From positions 512,001 through 576,000 of the forward strand of contig OY970173.1 in the NCBI GenBank assembly GCA_963707635.1: DNA of 64,000 nucleotides, read 5' to 3'. Each line of letters begins with the position of its first letter. Position 1 is the first letter of the stretch. The DNA comes from Candidatus Latescibacterota bacterium (lineage in GTDB: Bacteria > Krumholzibacteriota > Krumholzibacteriia > WVZY01 > JAKEHA01). The notes below the pieces were generated by a model. The model saw nothing but the letters and a program-made list of their open reading frames with translations, was not told the DNA's origin and searched no databases. The translations under genes and the position numbers were made by a program. Of the stretch, positions 52,267 through 60,408 are shown in pieces.

Positions 52267-53658
52267 CTATGCCGACTCCCGCTTCAGCCACACGTAGACG
52301 GGAATGCCGAGCAAGAGTAGCACGAAACCGTACAACACCGTCTCGGGGCCCGATCCGTACGTGGCCCACACCGAATATAGAAATGCGAGCACCGGCACGA
52401 CCGCGCTGCGCCACGTGAGACGCGCCGGCTCACCATTGGCCCCGGCGCGCGACGGGAGGGCTCCCGCTTGCGGGAAACCCGGCGCGCGCGGGCCGCTGTC
52501 ACGAAGCAGCAGCGGCACCAAGGCGGAGAACGCGTACGGCACCAGGTTCGCCAGCGTGGCGAGCAGGATGATGAAGTTGAAGATGCCGATGAGCCCCTTC
52601 GACCCGGAATAATTGAACACGATCAGCGCGGTCATCAGGCACGCGGACGAAATAATCCCGAACGCGGGCGCGCCGAAGCGGTTCACGGAGCCGAAACGGC
52701 GGGGGAACAGGCCCTCGCGCGCGGCGGCGGCCGGCAACTGTCCCGTGAGCAGCATCCATCCGTTGAGCGCGCCGAAACACGACACCACCGCGCCGAATCC
52801 CACCGCGTACGAGGCCCACCCGCCCCAGATCGAGCCGGCCGCGTCGGCGAACGGAGCGCCCGACGTGGCGAGCTTTTCGCGCGACATGATCCCCATGACC
52901 GCGACCGTCCCGAGAATGTAGACCACGGTGGTGAGCAGGGTCCCGATCACGGTGGCGCGCGGAATGGTGCGCTGGGGTTCGTGCACGTCGTCGGCCGGTA
53001 CGGTGGCGGATTCGAGTCCTAGGAACGACCACAGCGTCAGCGTCGCGACGGCCGACACCGCGGCGAACGGGCTCTGCCCCGAGGCGTTGAAGGGCGTGAA
53101 ATGCTCCGGCTTCACCCAGAACAGCCCCACCGTGGCGAGGGCGAGGAGCGGGATCAACTTGACGATCGTGGTCGCGTTCTGCACGCGGCCTGCGGAACGG
53201 ACGCCGCGCACGTTCACGGCCGCCAGCAACCACACGATGCCGATACAGGCCAGCGCCGGCGCCATCCCGCTGCCTCCCAGCGACGGGAAGAACACGCCGG
53301 CGTAGCTCACGCACGCGACCGCGATCGCGGTATTGCCCGACCAGAGCGCGATCCAGTAGCCCCACGCGATCCAGAACGCGGCGAAGTCGCCGAACCCGGC
53401 GCGCGTGTACGCGAATGGGCCGCCCGCTTTCGGGATCATCGTGGCCAGACGCGCGAACACGAGGGCCAGGCAAATCGCGCCCGCGGCCGTGAACACCCAA
53501 CCCACCAGAGAGATTGCGCCGAAGGGGGCGAGCGAGGCGGGCAAGAGAAAGATGCCTGAGCCGATCATGTTGCCGACCACGAGCGCGACGCAGGACCACA
53601 GACCGAGCTTCCTGATTCCTGGCGCGCGCCCGTTGGGGGAGGCGGGACGGGAACTCAC
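52267..53658 (-). CDS. APC-family amino acid permease (ArcD/AdiC/PotE-like antiporter)
   Basis: [28 protein letters not shown] and GALNGW, with about 12 TM helices. GTGA overlap with the upstream gene. Confidence 0.88.
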
Positions 53659-55013
53659 TTCAAGCGCACCGTCTGTTTGTGTTCGGGGATCTCCGCCTGC
53701 CAGGCCAGCCGGCGCTCGATGTGTTTGCGAAACGCGTCCGCGGCAGCCGGTTCTCCGTGGGTGAGGAACACGCGTTTGGGCTTTTCCTGCACGCTGCCCA
53801 GCCACTCGATCAGCTCGAGGTAATCGCCGTGCGCCGACATCGAGGTCAACTCCACGACCTCGGCCCGCACCGGCACGAACTCTCCGAAGATCTTCAACTC
53901 CTTGGCGCCATTCTGAAGCGCCTCGCCGCGCGTGCCGGGTGCCTGGAATCCGGCCAGCAGAACCGTATTGCGCGGGTCGGGCAGGAGGGTGCGCAGGTGA
54001 TGAACGACGCGCCCGCCCGTCGCCATGCCGCTGCCCGCGATGATGACCGCCGGCGTGCCGGTCGCGTTGAGCGCGCGCGAGGCCTCTTCGCTCTTGATGA
54101 ATTCGGCCACGCGGAACATCTCGCGGCAGGCCGCTACGCTCAACTTGTGCTCGGTGGAATACTCGCTGTAGATCTCCGTGGCGTCGATGGCGAGCGGGCT
54201 GTTGAGATACACCGGGACGTCCGGGATCGCATGCGCCTTGCGCAGCTCCGAAATGAAATGCAGGAGCGCCTGCGTTCGTCCGACCGCGAACGCGGGAATC
54301 ACCAGTGTGCCGCCGCGCTTCACCGTGCGCGTGATGACGGCCGCCAGCTCCTGGGCCGGGTCGGTCTCGGGGTGGAGGCGGTTGCCGTAGGTGGATTCGC
54401 ACACCAGCGTGTCGGCGTGCGTGATACCCACCGGAGGCTTCATGACCGGGTCGTTCATCCGGCCCACGTCGCCCGAGAAGACAACGCGGTACCCGTCGTG
54501 CACGAACGCGACCCAGGCCGAGCCGAGGATGTGCCCGACGGGGGTGTACCGGAAGGTCACGCCGTCGCCGAGGTCGACGTCGGTGCCGAACGGCCGGGGC
54601 TGGAGCAACTTCACGCACGCTTCCGCGTCTTCACGCGTATAGAGCGGAAGGGCCGGGTCGTGGCGCGCGTACTTGTGCCGCGTCAGGTAGCGGGCCTCTT
54701 CCTCCTGCAGGTGGCCGGAGTCGGGAAGGAGGATTTCGCACAGGGCGCGAGTGCCCGCTGTGCAGTACACCGGACCCTTGTAGCCGCGCTTGACCAGTAC
54801 CGGGAGGTAGCCGGTGTGGTCGATGTGCGCGTGCGTGAGGACAATCGCGTCGATCCTGCCGAGGTCGAACGGCGGGTCCTCCCAGTTGCGCTGGCGGAGG
54901 TTCTTCAAGCCCTGAAACAGGCCGCAGTCGACGAGGATGTTCTTCTTGCCGATCGAGAGCAGGTACTTGGAGCCGGTCACGGTGCCGGCCGCGCCGTAGA
55001 AGGAGATGAACAT
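53655..55013 (-). CDS. MBL-fold metallo-hydrolase, beta-CASP ribonuclease family
   Basis: GAAGTVTGS, DCGLFQG, THAHIDHTG, GHILGS, ESTYG, PAFAVGRTQ, SAHGD and HGEP. Confidence 0.92.
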   Translation of the reverse strand: MFISFYGAAGTVTGSKYLLSIGKKNILVDCGLFQGLKNLRQRNWEDPPFDLGRIDAIVLTHAHIDHTGYLPVLVKRGYKGPVYCTAGTRALCEILLPDSGHLQEEEARYLTRHKYARHDPALPLYTREDAEACVKLLQPRPFGTDVDLGDGVTFRYTPVGHILGSAWVAFVHDGYRVVFSGDVGRMNDPVMKPPVGITHADTLVCESTYGNRLHPETDPAQELAAVITRTVKRGGTLVIPAFAVGRTQALLHFISELRKAHAIPDVPVYLNSPLAIDATEIYSEYSTEHKLSVAACREMFRVAEFIKSEEASRALNATGTPAVIIAGSGMATGGRVVHHLRTLLPDPRNTVLLAGFQAPGTRGEALQNGAKELKIFGEFVPVRAEVVELTSMSAHGDYLELIEWLGSVQEKPKRVFLTHGEPAAADAFRKHIERRLAWQAEIPEHKQTVRLK

Positions 55014-55127: not shown

Positions 55128-57746
55128 ATGGCGAAACGAATCCTGACGACCGCGTTGCTCCTGTCGGCGGTTGTTGCGCAGCCGCCGACGGCCCGCGCGG
55201 CGAGCTTCGAGTCGATCCCGTCGTACTACCAGCAGCTCGACTTCAATCTGACCGGACCGACGAGCATGCCCGAAGCGGTGGGCGGCTACGCCAACCCCGC
55301 CGTGTATTCGCTGATGCCGGGCGCCGAGGCGGAGTATTACTGGTCGAGTTTCGACTCCGACGAGTTTCAGGGCGTGGACCGCTGGGGTCTCTTCCTCGGA
55401 CTCAAGCATCTCGGATTCGGTGTGACGCACACCCAGGCCCCGTTCTCGACCGGCGAGGCGAGCGTCACCGACTACCGGATTGGACTGGGTGGCGGGTCGC
55501 GCGCGTTCACCTTCGGCCTGGGGTACGGCTGGTCGGGCGGCGACGAGAGCGCGTTCGGGCGCGAGGACTTGATGCAGGTCGGGTTCGGGTATCGCCCGGG
55601 GCGGTACCTGTCGCTGGGCGGTGTCTGGGACTTCGGCATGCAGAGCGGTGACCGCCGCGAGCTCTACGACCTGGGCGTGCGCCCGCTCGGCGACCAGCGC
55701 CTGACCGTATTCGGTGACGTCGAGCTTACGAGCGTCGGCGGCGACTATCAGGACCACCCGCCGTACAGCGTTGGGGCGATGGTGGAGATTCCCGCCGGTC
55801 TGAAGCTCATCGGACGTTACTACGACGACAACCTGGTCGCCGACGAAGGCTTCAGCGTGGCCCTCGCGTACACGTTTGGCGGCGGGTTCGGGCAGGGCGT
55901 GGCGCGGGGCTCGGCGGCGGTCCGCTTCGATTCGGACAACAACCACGCCTACACCAACTGGGGTGTGCGCCTCGGCTTCCCCGAACGATCGAACATGCTC
56001 AAGCCGCTCAACCGCCACAGCGGCTACTTGGACCTGCGCGTCGGGGGCCAGGTCGCCTACACCACCTATCGCTTCCTCGACACGCGCCAGACGCTGCGCG
56101 AGATCATTTCCAACCTCGAGGCCGCGCGCACCGACGACCGCATCAGCGGCGTGGCCTTGAACCTCTCGGGCGCGAAACTTTCGCGCGGCACGGCGTGGGA
56201 GATCCGGCACAAGCTCGAGGAGCTGCGCGCGAGCGGGAAGAAGGTCGTCGTCTACATCGATGAAGCGGGCACCGCGACCTACTACGTCGCCAGCGTGGCG
56301 GATCGCGTGTTCATGGACCCCGAAGGGCTCCTGATTCTGCCGGGCTACGTCATGGGAAGAACGTACATCGCCAACATGCTCGAGAAGCTGGGCGTGGGTG
56401 TGGAGGAGTGGCGGTTCCTCAAGTACAAGAGCGCGATGGAGGCGCTCGTGCGCCACGAGATGAGCGATGCCGACCGCGAGCAGCGCCAGGCGCTGGTCGA
56501 TCAGGCGTACACGACGCTGCGCGACGACGTCGCGAAGAGCCGCAACGTGACGCCCGAAACCGTCGATCGCTGGATCGACGACGTGACGATATTCACAGCG
56601 CAGACGGCGGTCGACGAGAAGCTCGTCGATGTGCTGGGGCGGTGGGAGGACGTCAAGGACGACGTGAAGAAGACGGAAGGGCGCCGGCAACGTTTCGTCG
56701 GATCGGGAGAGCTGGAGGACAACTGGTATCCGTCGAAGCAATGGGGCCCGCGGCCGGAGGTGGCGGTCGTGTACGCGATCGGCCCGTGCGCGATGGACGA
56801 AGGCATCAACGCTCGCCGGCTGGAGAAGACGCTGCGCCGCCTGCGCGACGACCGCGGCGTCAAGGCGGTGGTGCTGCGGGTCGACTCGCCCGGCGGGAGC
56901 GCTCTCGCCTCCGATGTGGTTGCGGGGCAATTGAAGAAGATCATGGCGAAGAAGCCGGTGGTGGTGTCGCAGGGCGACGTGGCCGCCTCGGGCGGATACT
57001 GGCTTTCGATGTGCTCGCACCAGATCGTGGCGCAGCCGACCACCATCACGGGTTCGATCGGCGTCATCGCAGGCTGGGTGTGGGACAAGGGGTTGGGCGA
57101 GAAGGTCGGAATGGAGGGGGACTTCGTGAAGCGCGGCGAGCACGCGGATCTGTTTTTCTCGCTGCGGGTGCCGTTCTTTCCCGCGGCGATTCCGCACCGC
57201 GCCGCGAACAGCGAGGAACGCGACCGCGTGCTGGCCAGCATGAAGTCGCTCTACGCAGGTTTCGTCGGCGCCGTATCGAAGCATCGCAAGCTCCCGACCG
57301 AGCGGGTGGAAGCGGTGGCGCAGGGGCGCGTGTGGACCGGTGTGGCGGCCAAGGAGAACGGACTAGTGGACCGGATCGGCGGCCTCGAAGACGCCATCGC
57401 GCTCGCGCGCGAACTGGCCAAGATCGGCCCCGACGACGAAGTCGACGTGGTCGACTATTCGCCCCGTGGGCTGTTTCGATTCGACGTGCCCACGCCGTCG
57501 ATCAACGCCCCGTTTGCGAGCATCGGGGCACTGGCGTCGTGGGATGCGTTCGCGTCCGCCATGTTGCCGTGGGTGTTCGACGAGCCGGACGCAGATGCGG
57601 ACACGCAGGAATATCTTCGCGACTACGACTTGATGTACCTGAACCAGTTGGTGCAGAACGGCGGGCGCGCGTTGTGTCTGCTGCCGCCGGAGTATATTCC
57701 GCGCGACGAGTCGACCATACGAAATGCCACGTTGCCGGATCGGTGA
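55128..57746 (+). CDS. sppA: signal peptide peptidase SppA (S49) with a long N-terminal beta-rich extension
   Basis: KYKSA (Lys), [16 protein letters not shown] (Ser), TGSIGV and QGRVWTG. Signal peptide plus about 280 aa of amphipathic beta strands. Confidence 0.88.
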
Positions 57747-57760
57747 TCCGCGACTATATT
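57732..57760 (+). promoter_or_regulatory. sigma70 promoter TTGCCG-17-TATATT
   Basis: The predicted start site near 57766 coincides with the first leader hairpin. Confidence 0.6.
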
Positions 57761-57765
57761 TCAGT

Positions 57766-57893
57766 GCCGACCGCGCGAGCGGTCGGGTCATGCAAGGGTG
57801 GGGGTCCGATGGCCGAAAGGCCGTCGGGTAGGCCTCCAAGTCGGCGCGCGCCATGACGCGAGTTGTGGTTGCGCGCCGCTTTGCGTTTGAACC
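57766..57893 (+). ncRNA. structured 5' leader (candidate riboswitch or cis-regulatory RNA)
   Basis: Three GNRA-capped hairpins and a three-way junction that closes just before the GGAGGAG RBS. Confidence 0.5.
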
Positions 57894-57904
57894 GGAGGAG
57901 CGGA

Positions 57905-58201
57905 ATGGAGACTCACAAGCGGTCGATGGTCAAATCCATCACCTGGCGTATCATCGGCGTCTTCCTGCTGGGCGGCATCGCGTACAGCGTCACCAGGAAC
58001 TGGAAGGAGATGTCGATCATCACCATCCTCTTCCACAGCATTCGCATGGTGCTTTACTACTTCCACGAGCGCATCTGGCTCCGGGTGAAGTGGGGGAAAA
58101 TCCTGCATCCATTGGCGGAGATCGAGGTCAACGGCAAGCTGACCCCCGAAGATCTGGATGAAATCCGCGCGCGGCTGCGCGCGATGGGCTACCTGGAGTG
58201 A
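57905..58201 (+). CDS. DUF2061-domain small membrane protein
   Basis: METHKRSMVKSITWRIIG...YYFHERIW.RVKWG, with a strong RBS. Confidence 0.88.
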   Translation: METHKRSMVKSITWRIIGVFLLGGIAYSVTRNWKEMSIITILFHSIRMVLYYFHERIWLRVKWGKILHPLAEIEVNGKLTPEDLDEIRARLRAMGYLE

Positions 58202-58222
58202 GGCCGAGCGCCCTGCAGCTGG

Positions 58223-58265
58223 AAACAGAAAAGGGACCTGCCGGAGGGCAAGCGGTCCCTTTTCT
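58223..58265. terminator. bidirectional rho-independent terminator
   Basis: 12-bp inverted repeat AGAAAAGGGACC/GGTCCCTTTTCT, with U-rich tails on both strands. Confidence 0.8.
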
Positions 58266-58732
58266 CCCGCTATGGCGATGTTGCCGTAGCTCGGTGCGCG
58301 CCGATCTTTTCGACTGGGGTGCCCGCACAGCCTCTCTGGAGAGAATGTCGAAAACGACCGGCGCGCGTTAGACTGTCTCGCAAATGAATCCCTCCCCCAA
58401 GAGGAACCCACGAGTTCGAGCCTTCCTACTGCGCTAACGCCGCGCTCACCACCACGACCCGTCGGTTCGCACCGCGTTACCGAACGATTCGGTCGGCTCG
58501 ATTCTGTCGCCTTCGCGGTGTGCGATGGACCTCCTTTCGCCAAGCCCGCGCTTCGACGCGAGGCTAACGCTCCGGGTGTCGATGGCGCGTCGAACTCACT
58601 CGCGCCGAAGCGCGTACCCTGCCCCTGGCGTGATTCCGTAGAATCCCGTCGCGTTGCGCCTCGATCATTCGTCTGGATGCCCTGCACGGCGGTGCGCGTC
58701 GAAGCGGAACGGCGCTGCAATCCTAGCCCCGC
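58223..58732 (-). ncRNA. candidate large (~500 nt) structured non-coding RNA of unrecognised class
   Basis: Own promoter and terminator, no credible ORF, cUUCGg and cUACGg tetraloops, G-U-rich helices on the minus strand and potential pseudoknots. Confidence 0.6.
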
Positions 58733-58736
58733 ACAT

Positions 58737-58764
58737 AAACTATCCAGTAAACGCCAGTTGTCAA
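58737..58764 (-). promoter_or_regulatory. sigma70 promoter TTGACA-16-TAGTTT
   Basis: Perfect -35 box, pointing into the ORF-free structured region. Confidence 0.7.
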
Positions 58765-58829
58765 GGGGAGGGACGAAGATTCTTGCGAGACGCTGGTGAA
58801 TCGACTCACTAGCTGTTCACGGGGAGCGT

Positions 58830-59019
58830 GCAGGCGATATATCGGACTCCGCGCTCATGCGCTCGCGCGCACATGTTGTACGCGCGACTCGCGAAATCGC
58901 GCTTCGCCCGACATATCGCCTGCCTGAGGGTGGGATGCACTCCCTCGCACCGCCAATCCGCAGTCGCGCATTTCAACATGTGCGCGGGAGGACGGCGGTA
59001 GAGGGAGTGCATCCCACCC
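58830..59019. repeat. two long hairpins with mutually complementary loops
   Basis: Stem A 58830-58845/58908-58923. Stem B 58928-58946/59001-59019 (19 bp perfect). Loop-loop pairing 58866-58878/58974-58986 and 58882-58889/58962-58969. Confidence 0.8.
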
Positions 59020-59028
59020 CGCAGAATG

Positions 59029-60408
59029 TCAGCGGCCTGGCAGGAACGTAACTTCGAACAGCTTCGAGCGCGCCAGACGCGACTTCACGATCGCGCGGAA
59101 CTGTTCCGGCGTGAGGGCATTGACCTCGGCGACGAATTCGTCGGTGGTCCGGCCCTCGCGCAGCATGTGCCGCATGCCGATGTTCAACGCCTCCTGGCCT
59201 ATCACCTGGTGGTGGGCCATTGGATAGTCGGGCGCGTCCGGTTTGAGCATGGTCGTGGACATGAAGCTGGTGGCGTTCGCCTTGATGCTTTCGACTCGCG
59301 AGTCTTCCTCCAGCAGCTTGATCGCGCCCTCCAGGTGCTGAAGGAGCAGCGAACCCACTTCAGCGACGTCGCGGCCGGTTGGCTGGGCGTAGAGGAAGAA
59401 CGGCATCTCTCCCACGCGATAAACCTGGTTCGTGCAGTAGATGACCTGGTTGCCGCTGTAGAGCGCCGGTGACGAATTCATGTACTGATTCAAGAACGAG
59501 CCGAACAGGGAAAGGACCAGGCGCTCGCGGTAGTCGTCGTAGGGGCCGGGCGCGATGTAATAGATCGCGCTCGCGCTCACGTCCCAGGTGGCGTGGAGGT
59601 CGCGCTCGAGCCGCGGAACCCGCACGGGCGGCGCCGGGCGGCGCGGAATCGATTCGAGATGCTTGCGCACCAGCGCCTCGGCATCCGCTTTTTTGAAGTC
59701 GCCGACGATGACGATCACCATGTCATCCGGCCGGAAGTACTCCAGCTGGAACTTCTGCGCTTCCGGTATCGTCAGGCGACGGGTGCCTTCGCGGATGTCG
59801 ACGTGCATCTGACCGAAGTTCATGGCCTGGTTCAGCGCCATCATCGCGAACTTGGTGAGCGCGAGCTTGGGGGTGGAGATGGTCTGGTCGATTTCACTGA
59901 TCACCTTGTCCTGTTCGCGCTTCAGAATCTTGTCCTCGCACGTCATGCCCCCGAGCCGCGCAGCCTCGACGCGCAGGGCGTCCTCGAAGTGGTTCCCCCT
60001 CACGATGTAGTCGAAATGGATGAAATCGCCGAGTGTCTCCGCGTTGGCCATGCCGCGGTCGGTGCGCAGGAGGTTCCACGCTTCCTCGGTGCCGAAGGGG
60101 CCGCTCGCGCAGTAGATGGTAAGGTGCTCGGTCAGGTGCGATAACTGGGGCCGGCCCCTGGGTTCGTCCATGAAACCCACCGGGTAGAGCGTCTCGATCG
60201 CGATCTGATTGCTGGTGTGCTCCTCCTGCAGGTAAACCGTGATGCCGTTGGACAGCGCGAACGAGGACAAATCCGACATATCGCGCTTGAACGACTCCAG
60301 GTCCGCGCGCTCGAACTTCTCCGCCTCCTGCTCGTCCTTCTGGCAGGAGAGGGTCGCCGGAATGATGGCGGCGGCCAGCAGGGCGGCGGCCACAGGAGTA
60401 ACTCGCAT
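59029..60408 (-). CDS. M16 (insulinase-like) zinc peptidase family lipoprotein
   Basis: Lipobox TLSC, LSNGITV, HLTEH (HxxEH), ANAET, EQDKVISE and YFRPDDMVIVIVGD. Confidence 0.85.
   Translation of the reverse strand: MRVTPVAAALLAAAIIPATLSCQKDEQEAEKFERADLESFKRDMSDLSSFALSNGITVYLQEEHTSNQIAIETLYPVGFMDEPRGRPQLSHLTEHLTIYCASGPFGTEEAWNLLRTDRGMANAETLGDFIHFDYIVRGNHFEDALRVEAARLGGMTCEDKILKREQDKVISEIDQTISTPKLALTKFAMMALNQAMNFGQMHVDIREGTRRLTIPEAQKFQLEYFRPDDMVIVIVGDFKKADAEALVRKHLESIPRRPAPPVRVPRLERDLHATWDVSASAIYYIAPGPYDDYRERLVLSLFGSFLNQYMNSSPALYSGNQVIYCTNQVYRVGEMPFFLYAQPTGRDVAEVGSLLLQHLEGAIKLLEEDSRVESIKANATSFMSTTMLKPDAPDYPMAHHQVIGQEALNIGMRHMLREGRTTDEFVAEVNALTPEQFRAIVKSRLARSKLFEVTFLPGR

Follow-up and report, generated by a model that had tools for sequence, protein, structure and literature searches.

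A large structured non-coding RNA with a start-less Shine-Dalgarno linker and a probable small RNA partner in a family of Candidatus Krumholzibacteriia

What is encoded in the interval bounded by a convergent DUF2061 gene and an M16 peptidase gene in this bacterial genome (G000; ~3.2 Mb, 96% complete), and what might its product do? Within the window, the 64,000-nucleotide stretch of DNA analysed here, a preliminary description had placed a novel, large, stand-alone non-coding RNA in this interval. Few bacterial non-coding RNAs reach such a size and structural depth, and those known have mostly proved to be ribozymes, scaffolds or nanocages. We find that the large RNA is almost certainly a real structured non-coding RNA gene; covariation, the lack of a conserved reading frame, RNA contigs confined to the gene and negative Rfam searches all uphold the original call. 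Its family is absent from Rfam 15 and apparently undescribed, and a small RNA gene at the same locus is, from the sequences compared, its probable partner (Table 1).

Table 1. Features of the large and small RNA genes, their surroundings and a related locus in G020. Coordinates refer to the window unless a contig is given.
Feature	Coordinates	Strand	Remarks
sppA-like S49 peptidase gene	55128..57746	+	Conserved flank
Predicted sigma70 promoter of small RNA	57732..57760	+	Similar -35/-10 words in homologues
Small structured RNA gene, ~125 nt	57766..57888	+	GNRA hairpin, near-invariant UGCAAGG, hairpin 2, terminator
DUF2061 membrane protein gene	57905..58201	+	Optional insert between the two RNA genes
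Large structured non-coding RNA, ~500 nt	58228..58730	-	Start inferred from -10 box
Bidirectional intrinsic terminator	58228..58265	-	Common to convergent transcript
Domain 5: ~18-bp stem 58366-58347/58314-58296 plus loop	58296..58366	-
Domain 4: near-invariant G-U-rich 12-bp hairpin	58384..58412	-	Anti-SD-like strand, loop, SD-like strand
Domain 3: ~86-nt irregular rod	58416..58501	-	GAA/AGUA internal loop, conserved apical GYGGRUCG loop
Long-range 5-bp helix, 5' strand	58507..58511	-	Partner 58278-58274; closes domains 3-5 into multiway junction
SD-like linker GAAAGGAGG(U), without start codon	58529..58538	-	10 bp complementary to G000 16S 3' end
Domain 2: 27-bp rod	58544..58617	-	Includes 13-bp helix 58613-58601/58560-58548
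Domain 1: 7-bp hairpin stem, variable C/A-rich loop	58657..58706	-	Absent in L014, L037
Sigma70-type promoter of large RNA: -35 TTGACA, 16-nt spacer, -10 TAGTTT	58737..58764	-	Single copy, family-restricted
M16 peptidase-family gene	59029..60408	-	Conserved upstream flank, approximate start
194-aa lipoprotein-like gene in G020	L156:2580-3164	-	Own SD, no Pfam match, C/A-rich structured leader

The large RNA has a promoter of its own. The TTGACA-16-TAGTTT element named in the preliminary description is present and is conserved within the family, and a consensus promoter scanner misses it because TAGTTT matches at only three of six positions. G000 contains one site of this kind, which rules out a regulon of the motif. 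Among the 22 other genomes of the family, 15 retain the promoter as a single copy, and none of 178 genomes outside the family has it; in all, it is known from 16 genomes in five genera. Its spacer carries a conserved GTTWAC word that is probably a regulator site. At the opposite end, the predicted terminator is confirmed by double-sided change in 10 of its 15 pairs. Nearly every locus of sufficient length shows synteny with the M16 and sppA genes, with DUF2061 optional. A ~190-bp palindromic interspersed repeat (58829-59020), which we take to be MITE- or REP-like, lies between the M16 gene and the promoter; at least 30 related pieces occur in G000, several of them full-length, at 81-93% identity.

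BLAST detected the large RNA in 12 of the 22 other genomes of the family and in none of 38 outside it; the misses in G008, G009 and G014 are not absences, because their contigs break at or near the locus. A conserved-motif search returned nine genome and 23 metagenome stretches and no viral ones, and the organism labels among them name Candidatus Krumholzibacteriia and, in one case, Latescibacteria. De-duplication left 30 unique homologue sequences, and 27 of these were aligned (alignment A1, which omits the near-duplicate loci L039, L044 and L045) with identities of 47-95% (median 61%). A covariance model of the core found no match outside genus g1. The RNA driven by the promoter in genera g2, g4 and g6 has diverged and measures about 500-620 nt; its domain-5 stem and loop are preserved (E 1e-9 to 7e-6), and the g4 and g6 versions also retain the Shine-Dalgarno (SD) sequence. 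Members of these three genera (L083, L084, L085 and L098) carry an extra 3' stem-loop with a conserved, anti-SD-like CCUCGUUCCUC word; the large RNAs of g1 have GUUCCUC in domain 4, and a CCCUC word occurs in 18 of 27 terminators. The large RNA is chromosomal and single-copy. It had no match in the plasmid or phage collections searched, and two RNA motifs had none in viral contigs, so a mobile element was rejected; the promoter pattern had two matches in AT-rich viral contigs, neither with an RNA match. As far as these searches reach, the large RNA is apparently confined to one family of Candidatus Krumholzibacteriia, uncultured bacteria of soil and sediment.

Extensive folding of the minus strand, first seen by eye, was supported by calculation: over 513 nt, the folding z was -3.6 for the minus strand and -2.26 for the plus strand, and the minus strand folded better in 27 of 27 homologues. 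The fold model, for which per-sequence ensembles were mapped on the alignment, comprises five domains plus the terminator. The 5' part of the RNA is missing in L014 and partly missing in L037. The apical region of domain 2 contains a conserved CACCCGG (58578-58572) in 26 of 27 homologues. The long-range helix that closes the junction is paired in 91% of cells, with double-sided change in four of its five pairs. In domain 3, AGUA is found in 22 of 27 homologues and the apical motif in 21; we presume the GAA/AGUA internal loop to be loop-E-like.

The helices of the preliminary description fared unequally. Its G-U-rich helix near 58385-58410 reappears as domain 4 (58384-58412), the near-invariance of which is biased for pattern-found members because domain 4 is partly the search motif, and its ~19-bp helix reappears as the ~18-bp stem of domain 5. 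The 5' closing helix (58732-58724/58566-58558) has a pairing probability of 0 and is unconserved, and low probabilities were likewise obtained for the cUACGg hairpin (0.14), the 11-bp crossing or alternative helix (0.12) and the cUUCGg hairpin (0.01), the bases of which pair instead with 58560-58548 in the 13-bp helix of domain 2 (probability 0.88). The UCGAGCC/GGCUCGA pseudoknot candidate is instead a nested stem at the base of the long rod (probability ~0.9), and no covarying pseudoknot was found in the large RNA.

The loop of domain 5 is the most conserved loop of the large RNA and sits between GC-rich inverted repeats. A 17-nt loop motif (58332-58316) is retained in four genera and is almost the sole sequence that different genera share. 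Four homologues have lost the domain (L007 and L043) or have a shortened one. In one clade (L009, L014, L034, L041, L042, L048 and L050), which has 100/99 support on an sppA tree for the three members tested, the loop is inverted, and its sense then resembles the conserved core of the small RNA.

Covariation among homologues, proposed at the outset as a check, was found. Double-sided compensatory change occurs in 57 of 118 consensus pairs among the 27 aligned homologues, a count reached by none of 500 shuffles and approached by none of the slid controls, and counting along the tree gave 33 compensatory events, where 2000 rate-matched re-pairings gave 6.0 +/- 2.5 and never more than 19; these figures lean in favour of the fold, because the structure was derived from the same sequences that were scored.

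The interval was said to hold no credible open reading frame (ORF), and indeed no frame is conserved among the 27 homologues. A 310-codon minus-strand ORF that spans it is not credible because it runs through the terminator and because SD-to-core distances fall in all three frames. A small peptide behind the SD was rejected likewise, with no conserved frame in the 27 homologues. Against Rfam 15, the large-RNA interval had no match even at E 10, and in the window and 28 homologue loci (G021 given twice) neither RNA came near a gathering score, so that this check on novelty leaves both the large and the small RNA with no Rfam family. Literature searches on the lineage, on large non-coding RNAs and on motif surveys brought up no description of the family, and the supplements of motif surveys could hold an unnamed version. 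G000 has its own RNase P RNA, 6S RNA, tmRNA and SRP RNA elsewhere. The RNase P core is absent, as had been noted, with CR-I, CR-IV and CR-V words in 1, 3 and 3 of 27 homologues, and so is the tmRNA 3' tRNA-like end, whose 3' word occurs in 0 of 27; ARAGORN found no tmRNA in the window. The suggested 6S-like first domain has to be given up, since its closing helix is not conserved, the 5' part is dispensable in L014 and the genome has a 6S RNA of its own.

The large RNA appears as RNA in soil and sediment metatranscriptomes. RNA runs were selected by words of 57900-59100, and each of six metatranscriptome runs (6/6) yielded one contig of 326-414 nt, 97-99% identical, that lay wholly in 58271-58714 with no loose end. 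The six runs represent four independent studies, the contigs of X12 and X13 being identical and the two runs apparently a single data set. Sequence from a DNA run, by contrast, extends past both gene ends. Over 19.9 kb in three RNA runs, no comparable long, near-identical RNA contig was among the longest matches listed. The contigs give neither strand, ends nor level, and they are therefore a hint of transcription, not proof. The small RNA is not among the RNA contigs listed, which has no bearing on its expression.

The internal SD without a start codon, seen in the preliminary description, proved to be a family trait. In 22 of 27 homologues it is followed by no ATG, GTG, TTG or CTG at a distance of 4-12 nt, and the other five have unrelated frames. 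The linker is present in every aligned homologue, with its GAAAGG invariant in 25 of 25 core rows; it is kept in three genera, including g4 and g6, and survives in L014, the homologue that has no 5' domains. Its predicted duplex with the 16S tail amounts to -12 to -19 kcal/mol. It has no conserved intramolecular partner, and GGAGG averages only 43% unpaired. A longer duplex between domain 4 and the 16S 3' end plus trailer was considered and rejected: it covers 19 of 22 positions in G000, 14-16 in other g1 genomes and also 15-18 in genomes where the large RNA was not found, and its energy is not above shuffles. Nor did the other conserved loops pair with the rRNA operon better than shuffles did, the domain-5 loop excepted (-31.1 against -28.1 for the best of eight shuffles).

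The origin of the SD may lie in a message. In G020 (genus g5), neither RNA was found, and the same promoter, converging on sppA, heads the lipoprotein-like gene. This protein family occurs in 8 of 13 sister-family genomes and in 0 of 16 other g1 genomes. Since the G020 promoter heads a lipoprotein mRNA with its own SD, the SD of the large RNA could be inherited from mRNA; the large RNA may be derived from an mRNA, or the promoter of the RNA may have come to drive a gene captured by G020, and the tree leaves the order of the two states unsettled.

The small RNA gene lies between sppA and DUF2061 and folds with z = -5.9. Of 28 loci, 24 have it next to the large RNA; the two genes are convergent in most cases and in tandem in three, and in G017 it is 4 kb away. 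The loose small-RNA pattern is unspecific outside the family and was used within it only, and high helix scores of L093, L043 and L083 were set aside because of overlapping sequence. The small RNA was not detected in L051, L028 and L037, despite an intact forward loop, and is still present in L007 and L043, where domain 5 is deleted. A peptide read from an AUG in the small RNA was discarded, as no conserved frame was evident by reading.

Segment 57800-57814 of the small RNA is predicted to pair with the domain-5 loop. When the 24 nt after UGCAAGG were set against the loop, the duplex reached -29.5 to -37.4 kcal/mol in 12 of 12 forward-loop loci, with a shuffle p <= 0.02 in ten of them, and also -27.1 in g6 and -31.8 in g2. 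Within the large RNA, the loop is the best pairing site for the small RNA. Complementarity to the loop extends over four genera; it is perfect over 12 nt in g4 and g2, and G000 keeps the match through three wobble changes and a bulge. In 11 loci, departures from complementarity comprised 18 wobble-compatible changes, one opposite transition and 11 transversions, four of the last from L038, which was mis-aligned in this count; the wobble bias is explicable by hairpin 2 alone, because the g1 partner segment is also paired inside hairpin 2. Cognate pairs were not significantly better than non-cognate ones (p = 0.09), and 0.84% of random genomic 40-mers of G000 pair as well as the loop. The pairing is absent in the seven inverted-loop loci and in two shortened-loop loci. 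Rescue by the other strand of hairpin 2 in the inverted-loop clade was rejected, being seen in only one of six. Hfq was not found in G000, and a dependence on it was rejected. A sponge for CsrA was dismissed, as CsrA was not found in this genome, which is 96% complete.

Our best guess, to which we assign a probability of about 0.3, is that the large RNA binds the 30S subunit and is controlled by the small RNA as an antisense partner. The chances of 30S docking through the SD, and those of the small RNA pairing with the domain-5 loop, we put at about even in each case, judging from sequence comparison. A transcription factor would act on the conserved promoter spacer, and the folded rods would provide a scaffold or a protein-binding surface. 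The SD linker would pair with the 16S anti-SD, by which the large RNA would dock on the 30S subunit without initiating translation, and this docking would be a decoy, storage or stabilizing step. The small RNA would pair with the domain-5 loop, altering the junction or the lifetime of the large RNA. A protein-free form of the idea, in which the large RNA would park or silence the 30S subunit and the small RNA would switch it by loop invasion, seems somewhat unlikely.

The main rival is about as likely as this antisense-controlled, 30S-binding RNA. It holds that the large RNA is an orphan "ornate" RNA of the OLE/ROOL/raiA type, a protein-binding or self-assembling scaffold, in which the SD-like word would be a relic of an mRNA or make a tertiary or protein contact, while the small-RNA match would be an old duplication without present function. 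The large covarying fold with its conserved internal and apical loops speaks for such a scaffold, as do the tolerance of loop inversion and of domain-5 loss, the lack of cognate specificity in the pairing and the G020 mRNA behind the same promoter. It accounts less well for a cross-genus 17-nt loop motif that is the very part complementary to the small RNA, and for an SD that outlasts the 5' domains. The roles could also be reversed, with the large RNA a sponge or store whose domain-5 loop titrates the small RNA, the active regulator in trans. We consider this unlikely: a 500-nt covarying scaffold with an SD far exceeds what titration needs, and in g1 conservation is strongest outside domain 5, even though the loop is complementary, the small RNA comes with a promoter and terminator of its own and a near-invariant UGCAAGG, and the apparent lack of Hfq in G000 would call for extended pairing.

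Two further readings keep the ribosome contact. The SD could be a 5' stabilizer only, of the STAB-SD type, with a bound 30S subunit protecting the 3' junction domain (~310 nt) against 5'-to-3' decay and a leader made up of the 5' domains. The known STAB-SD is start-less and 30S-binding (PMC4113751), and L014 can dispense with the 5' domains; against this, no RNase J exceeds the family cut-off in G000 and the RNA contigs reach 5' of the SD, to 58714, and we regard a stabilizer alone as quite unlikely. A beta-CASP metallo-beta-lactamase ribonuclease gene (53655-55013, minus strand), 3 kb from the large RNA, is the sole RNase J-like match in G000, at E 1.9e-4, below the cut-off. Very unlikely, in our estimate, is an all-RNA toxin-antitoxin pair in which the large RNA would exert its toxicity by sequestering 30S subunits, an effect that the small RNA would neutralize. 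Its convergent layout, shared terminator and oppositely read repeat recall par/fst (PMC7472228), and SD-dependent RNA toxins are known from CreT (PMC10097628), which needs a start codon, whereas the large RNA has none. The locus is, however, single-copy with fixed synteny, searches of viral, phage and plasmid sets did not find it, and L051, L028 and L037 have a forward loop with no detectable partner. Descent from a known ribozyme, as a diverged or permuted RNase P RNA or group II intron, is largely refuted and we give it hardly any weight. The motif resemblances that suggested it were seen by eye in G000 alone. A circularly permuted RNase P RNA fails because only 1-3 of 27 homologues contain RNase P-like words, a profile gives no match to the rnpB of the genome and a canonical rnpB is present. 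For a group II intron remnant, a profile of 14 class C-type introns from relatives gave a best E of 0.18, like reversed controls (1.6); RF02001 had no match in G000, and other intron classes were checked through Rfam only. Group II introns were over the cut-off in 14 of 121 genomes, none in the large-RNA family, and in other families of the class they lie directly behind terminator hairpins (L057-L070).

The large RNA has the testable defining features of no known system with which it was compared. OLE, ROOL and GOLLD are likewise 500-650 nt, multi-helix, covarying, non-coding and of unclear function (PMC12286853), but the large RNA has no Rfam match to any of them, has a start-less SD and a dedicated small-RNA neighbour, and has no covarying pseudoknot that we could find. 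Whereas ROOL is phage- or prophage-borne (PMC12286853), the large RNA is chromosomal, single-copy, limited to one family and not in the phage sets searched. The likeness to par/fst (PMC7472228) consists in convergent long and short RNAs that are complementary through a repeat, an SD on the long RNA and, in several genomes carrying the large RNA, a shared terminator. By sequence, this complementarity is present in the forward-loop lineages only and not in the inverted-loop clade. Unlike par/fst, the large RNA has no toxin ORF, with no start codon behind the SD in 22 of 27; its pairing site and the SD are separated by ~200 nt, the long RNA has twice the length, and the locus is not mobile and is tandem in some loci. 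The STAB-SD of the Bacillus thuringiensis cry3A mRNA (PMC4113751) is also a strong, 16S-complementary SD without a start codon, but here the SD lies inside a non-coding RNA and not in an mRNA leader, and no RNase J was detected. SprF1 of Staphylococcus aureus (PMC8938821) and CreT (PMC10097628) are ribosome-acting non-coding RNAs that work through a purine-rich or SD element, a likeness by description. SprF1 is a small RNA and the antitoxin of a peptide toxin (PMC8938821), and CreT is a small RNA that needs its start codon and is repressed by CRISPR-Cas (PMC10097628). The large RNA has no CreT-type start codon, and a CRISPR linkage was judged on the flanking genes only.

The start-less ribosome-binding site and the predicted RNA partner offer two handles on the large RNA, and the lack of a cultured host does not stand in the way of making the two RNAs in vitro. 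The significance of the finding is tempered by the restriction of the large RNA to one family. If true, the two-RNA switch would represent a novel class in which a large RNA binds ribosomes and is regulated by an RNA of its own.
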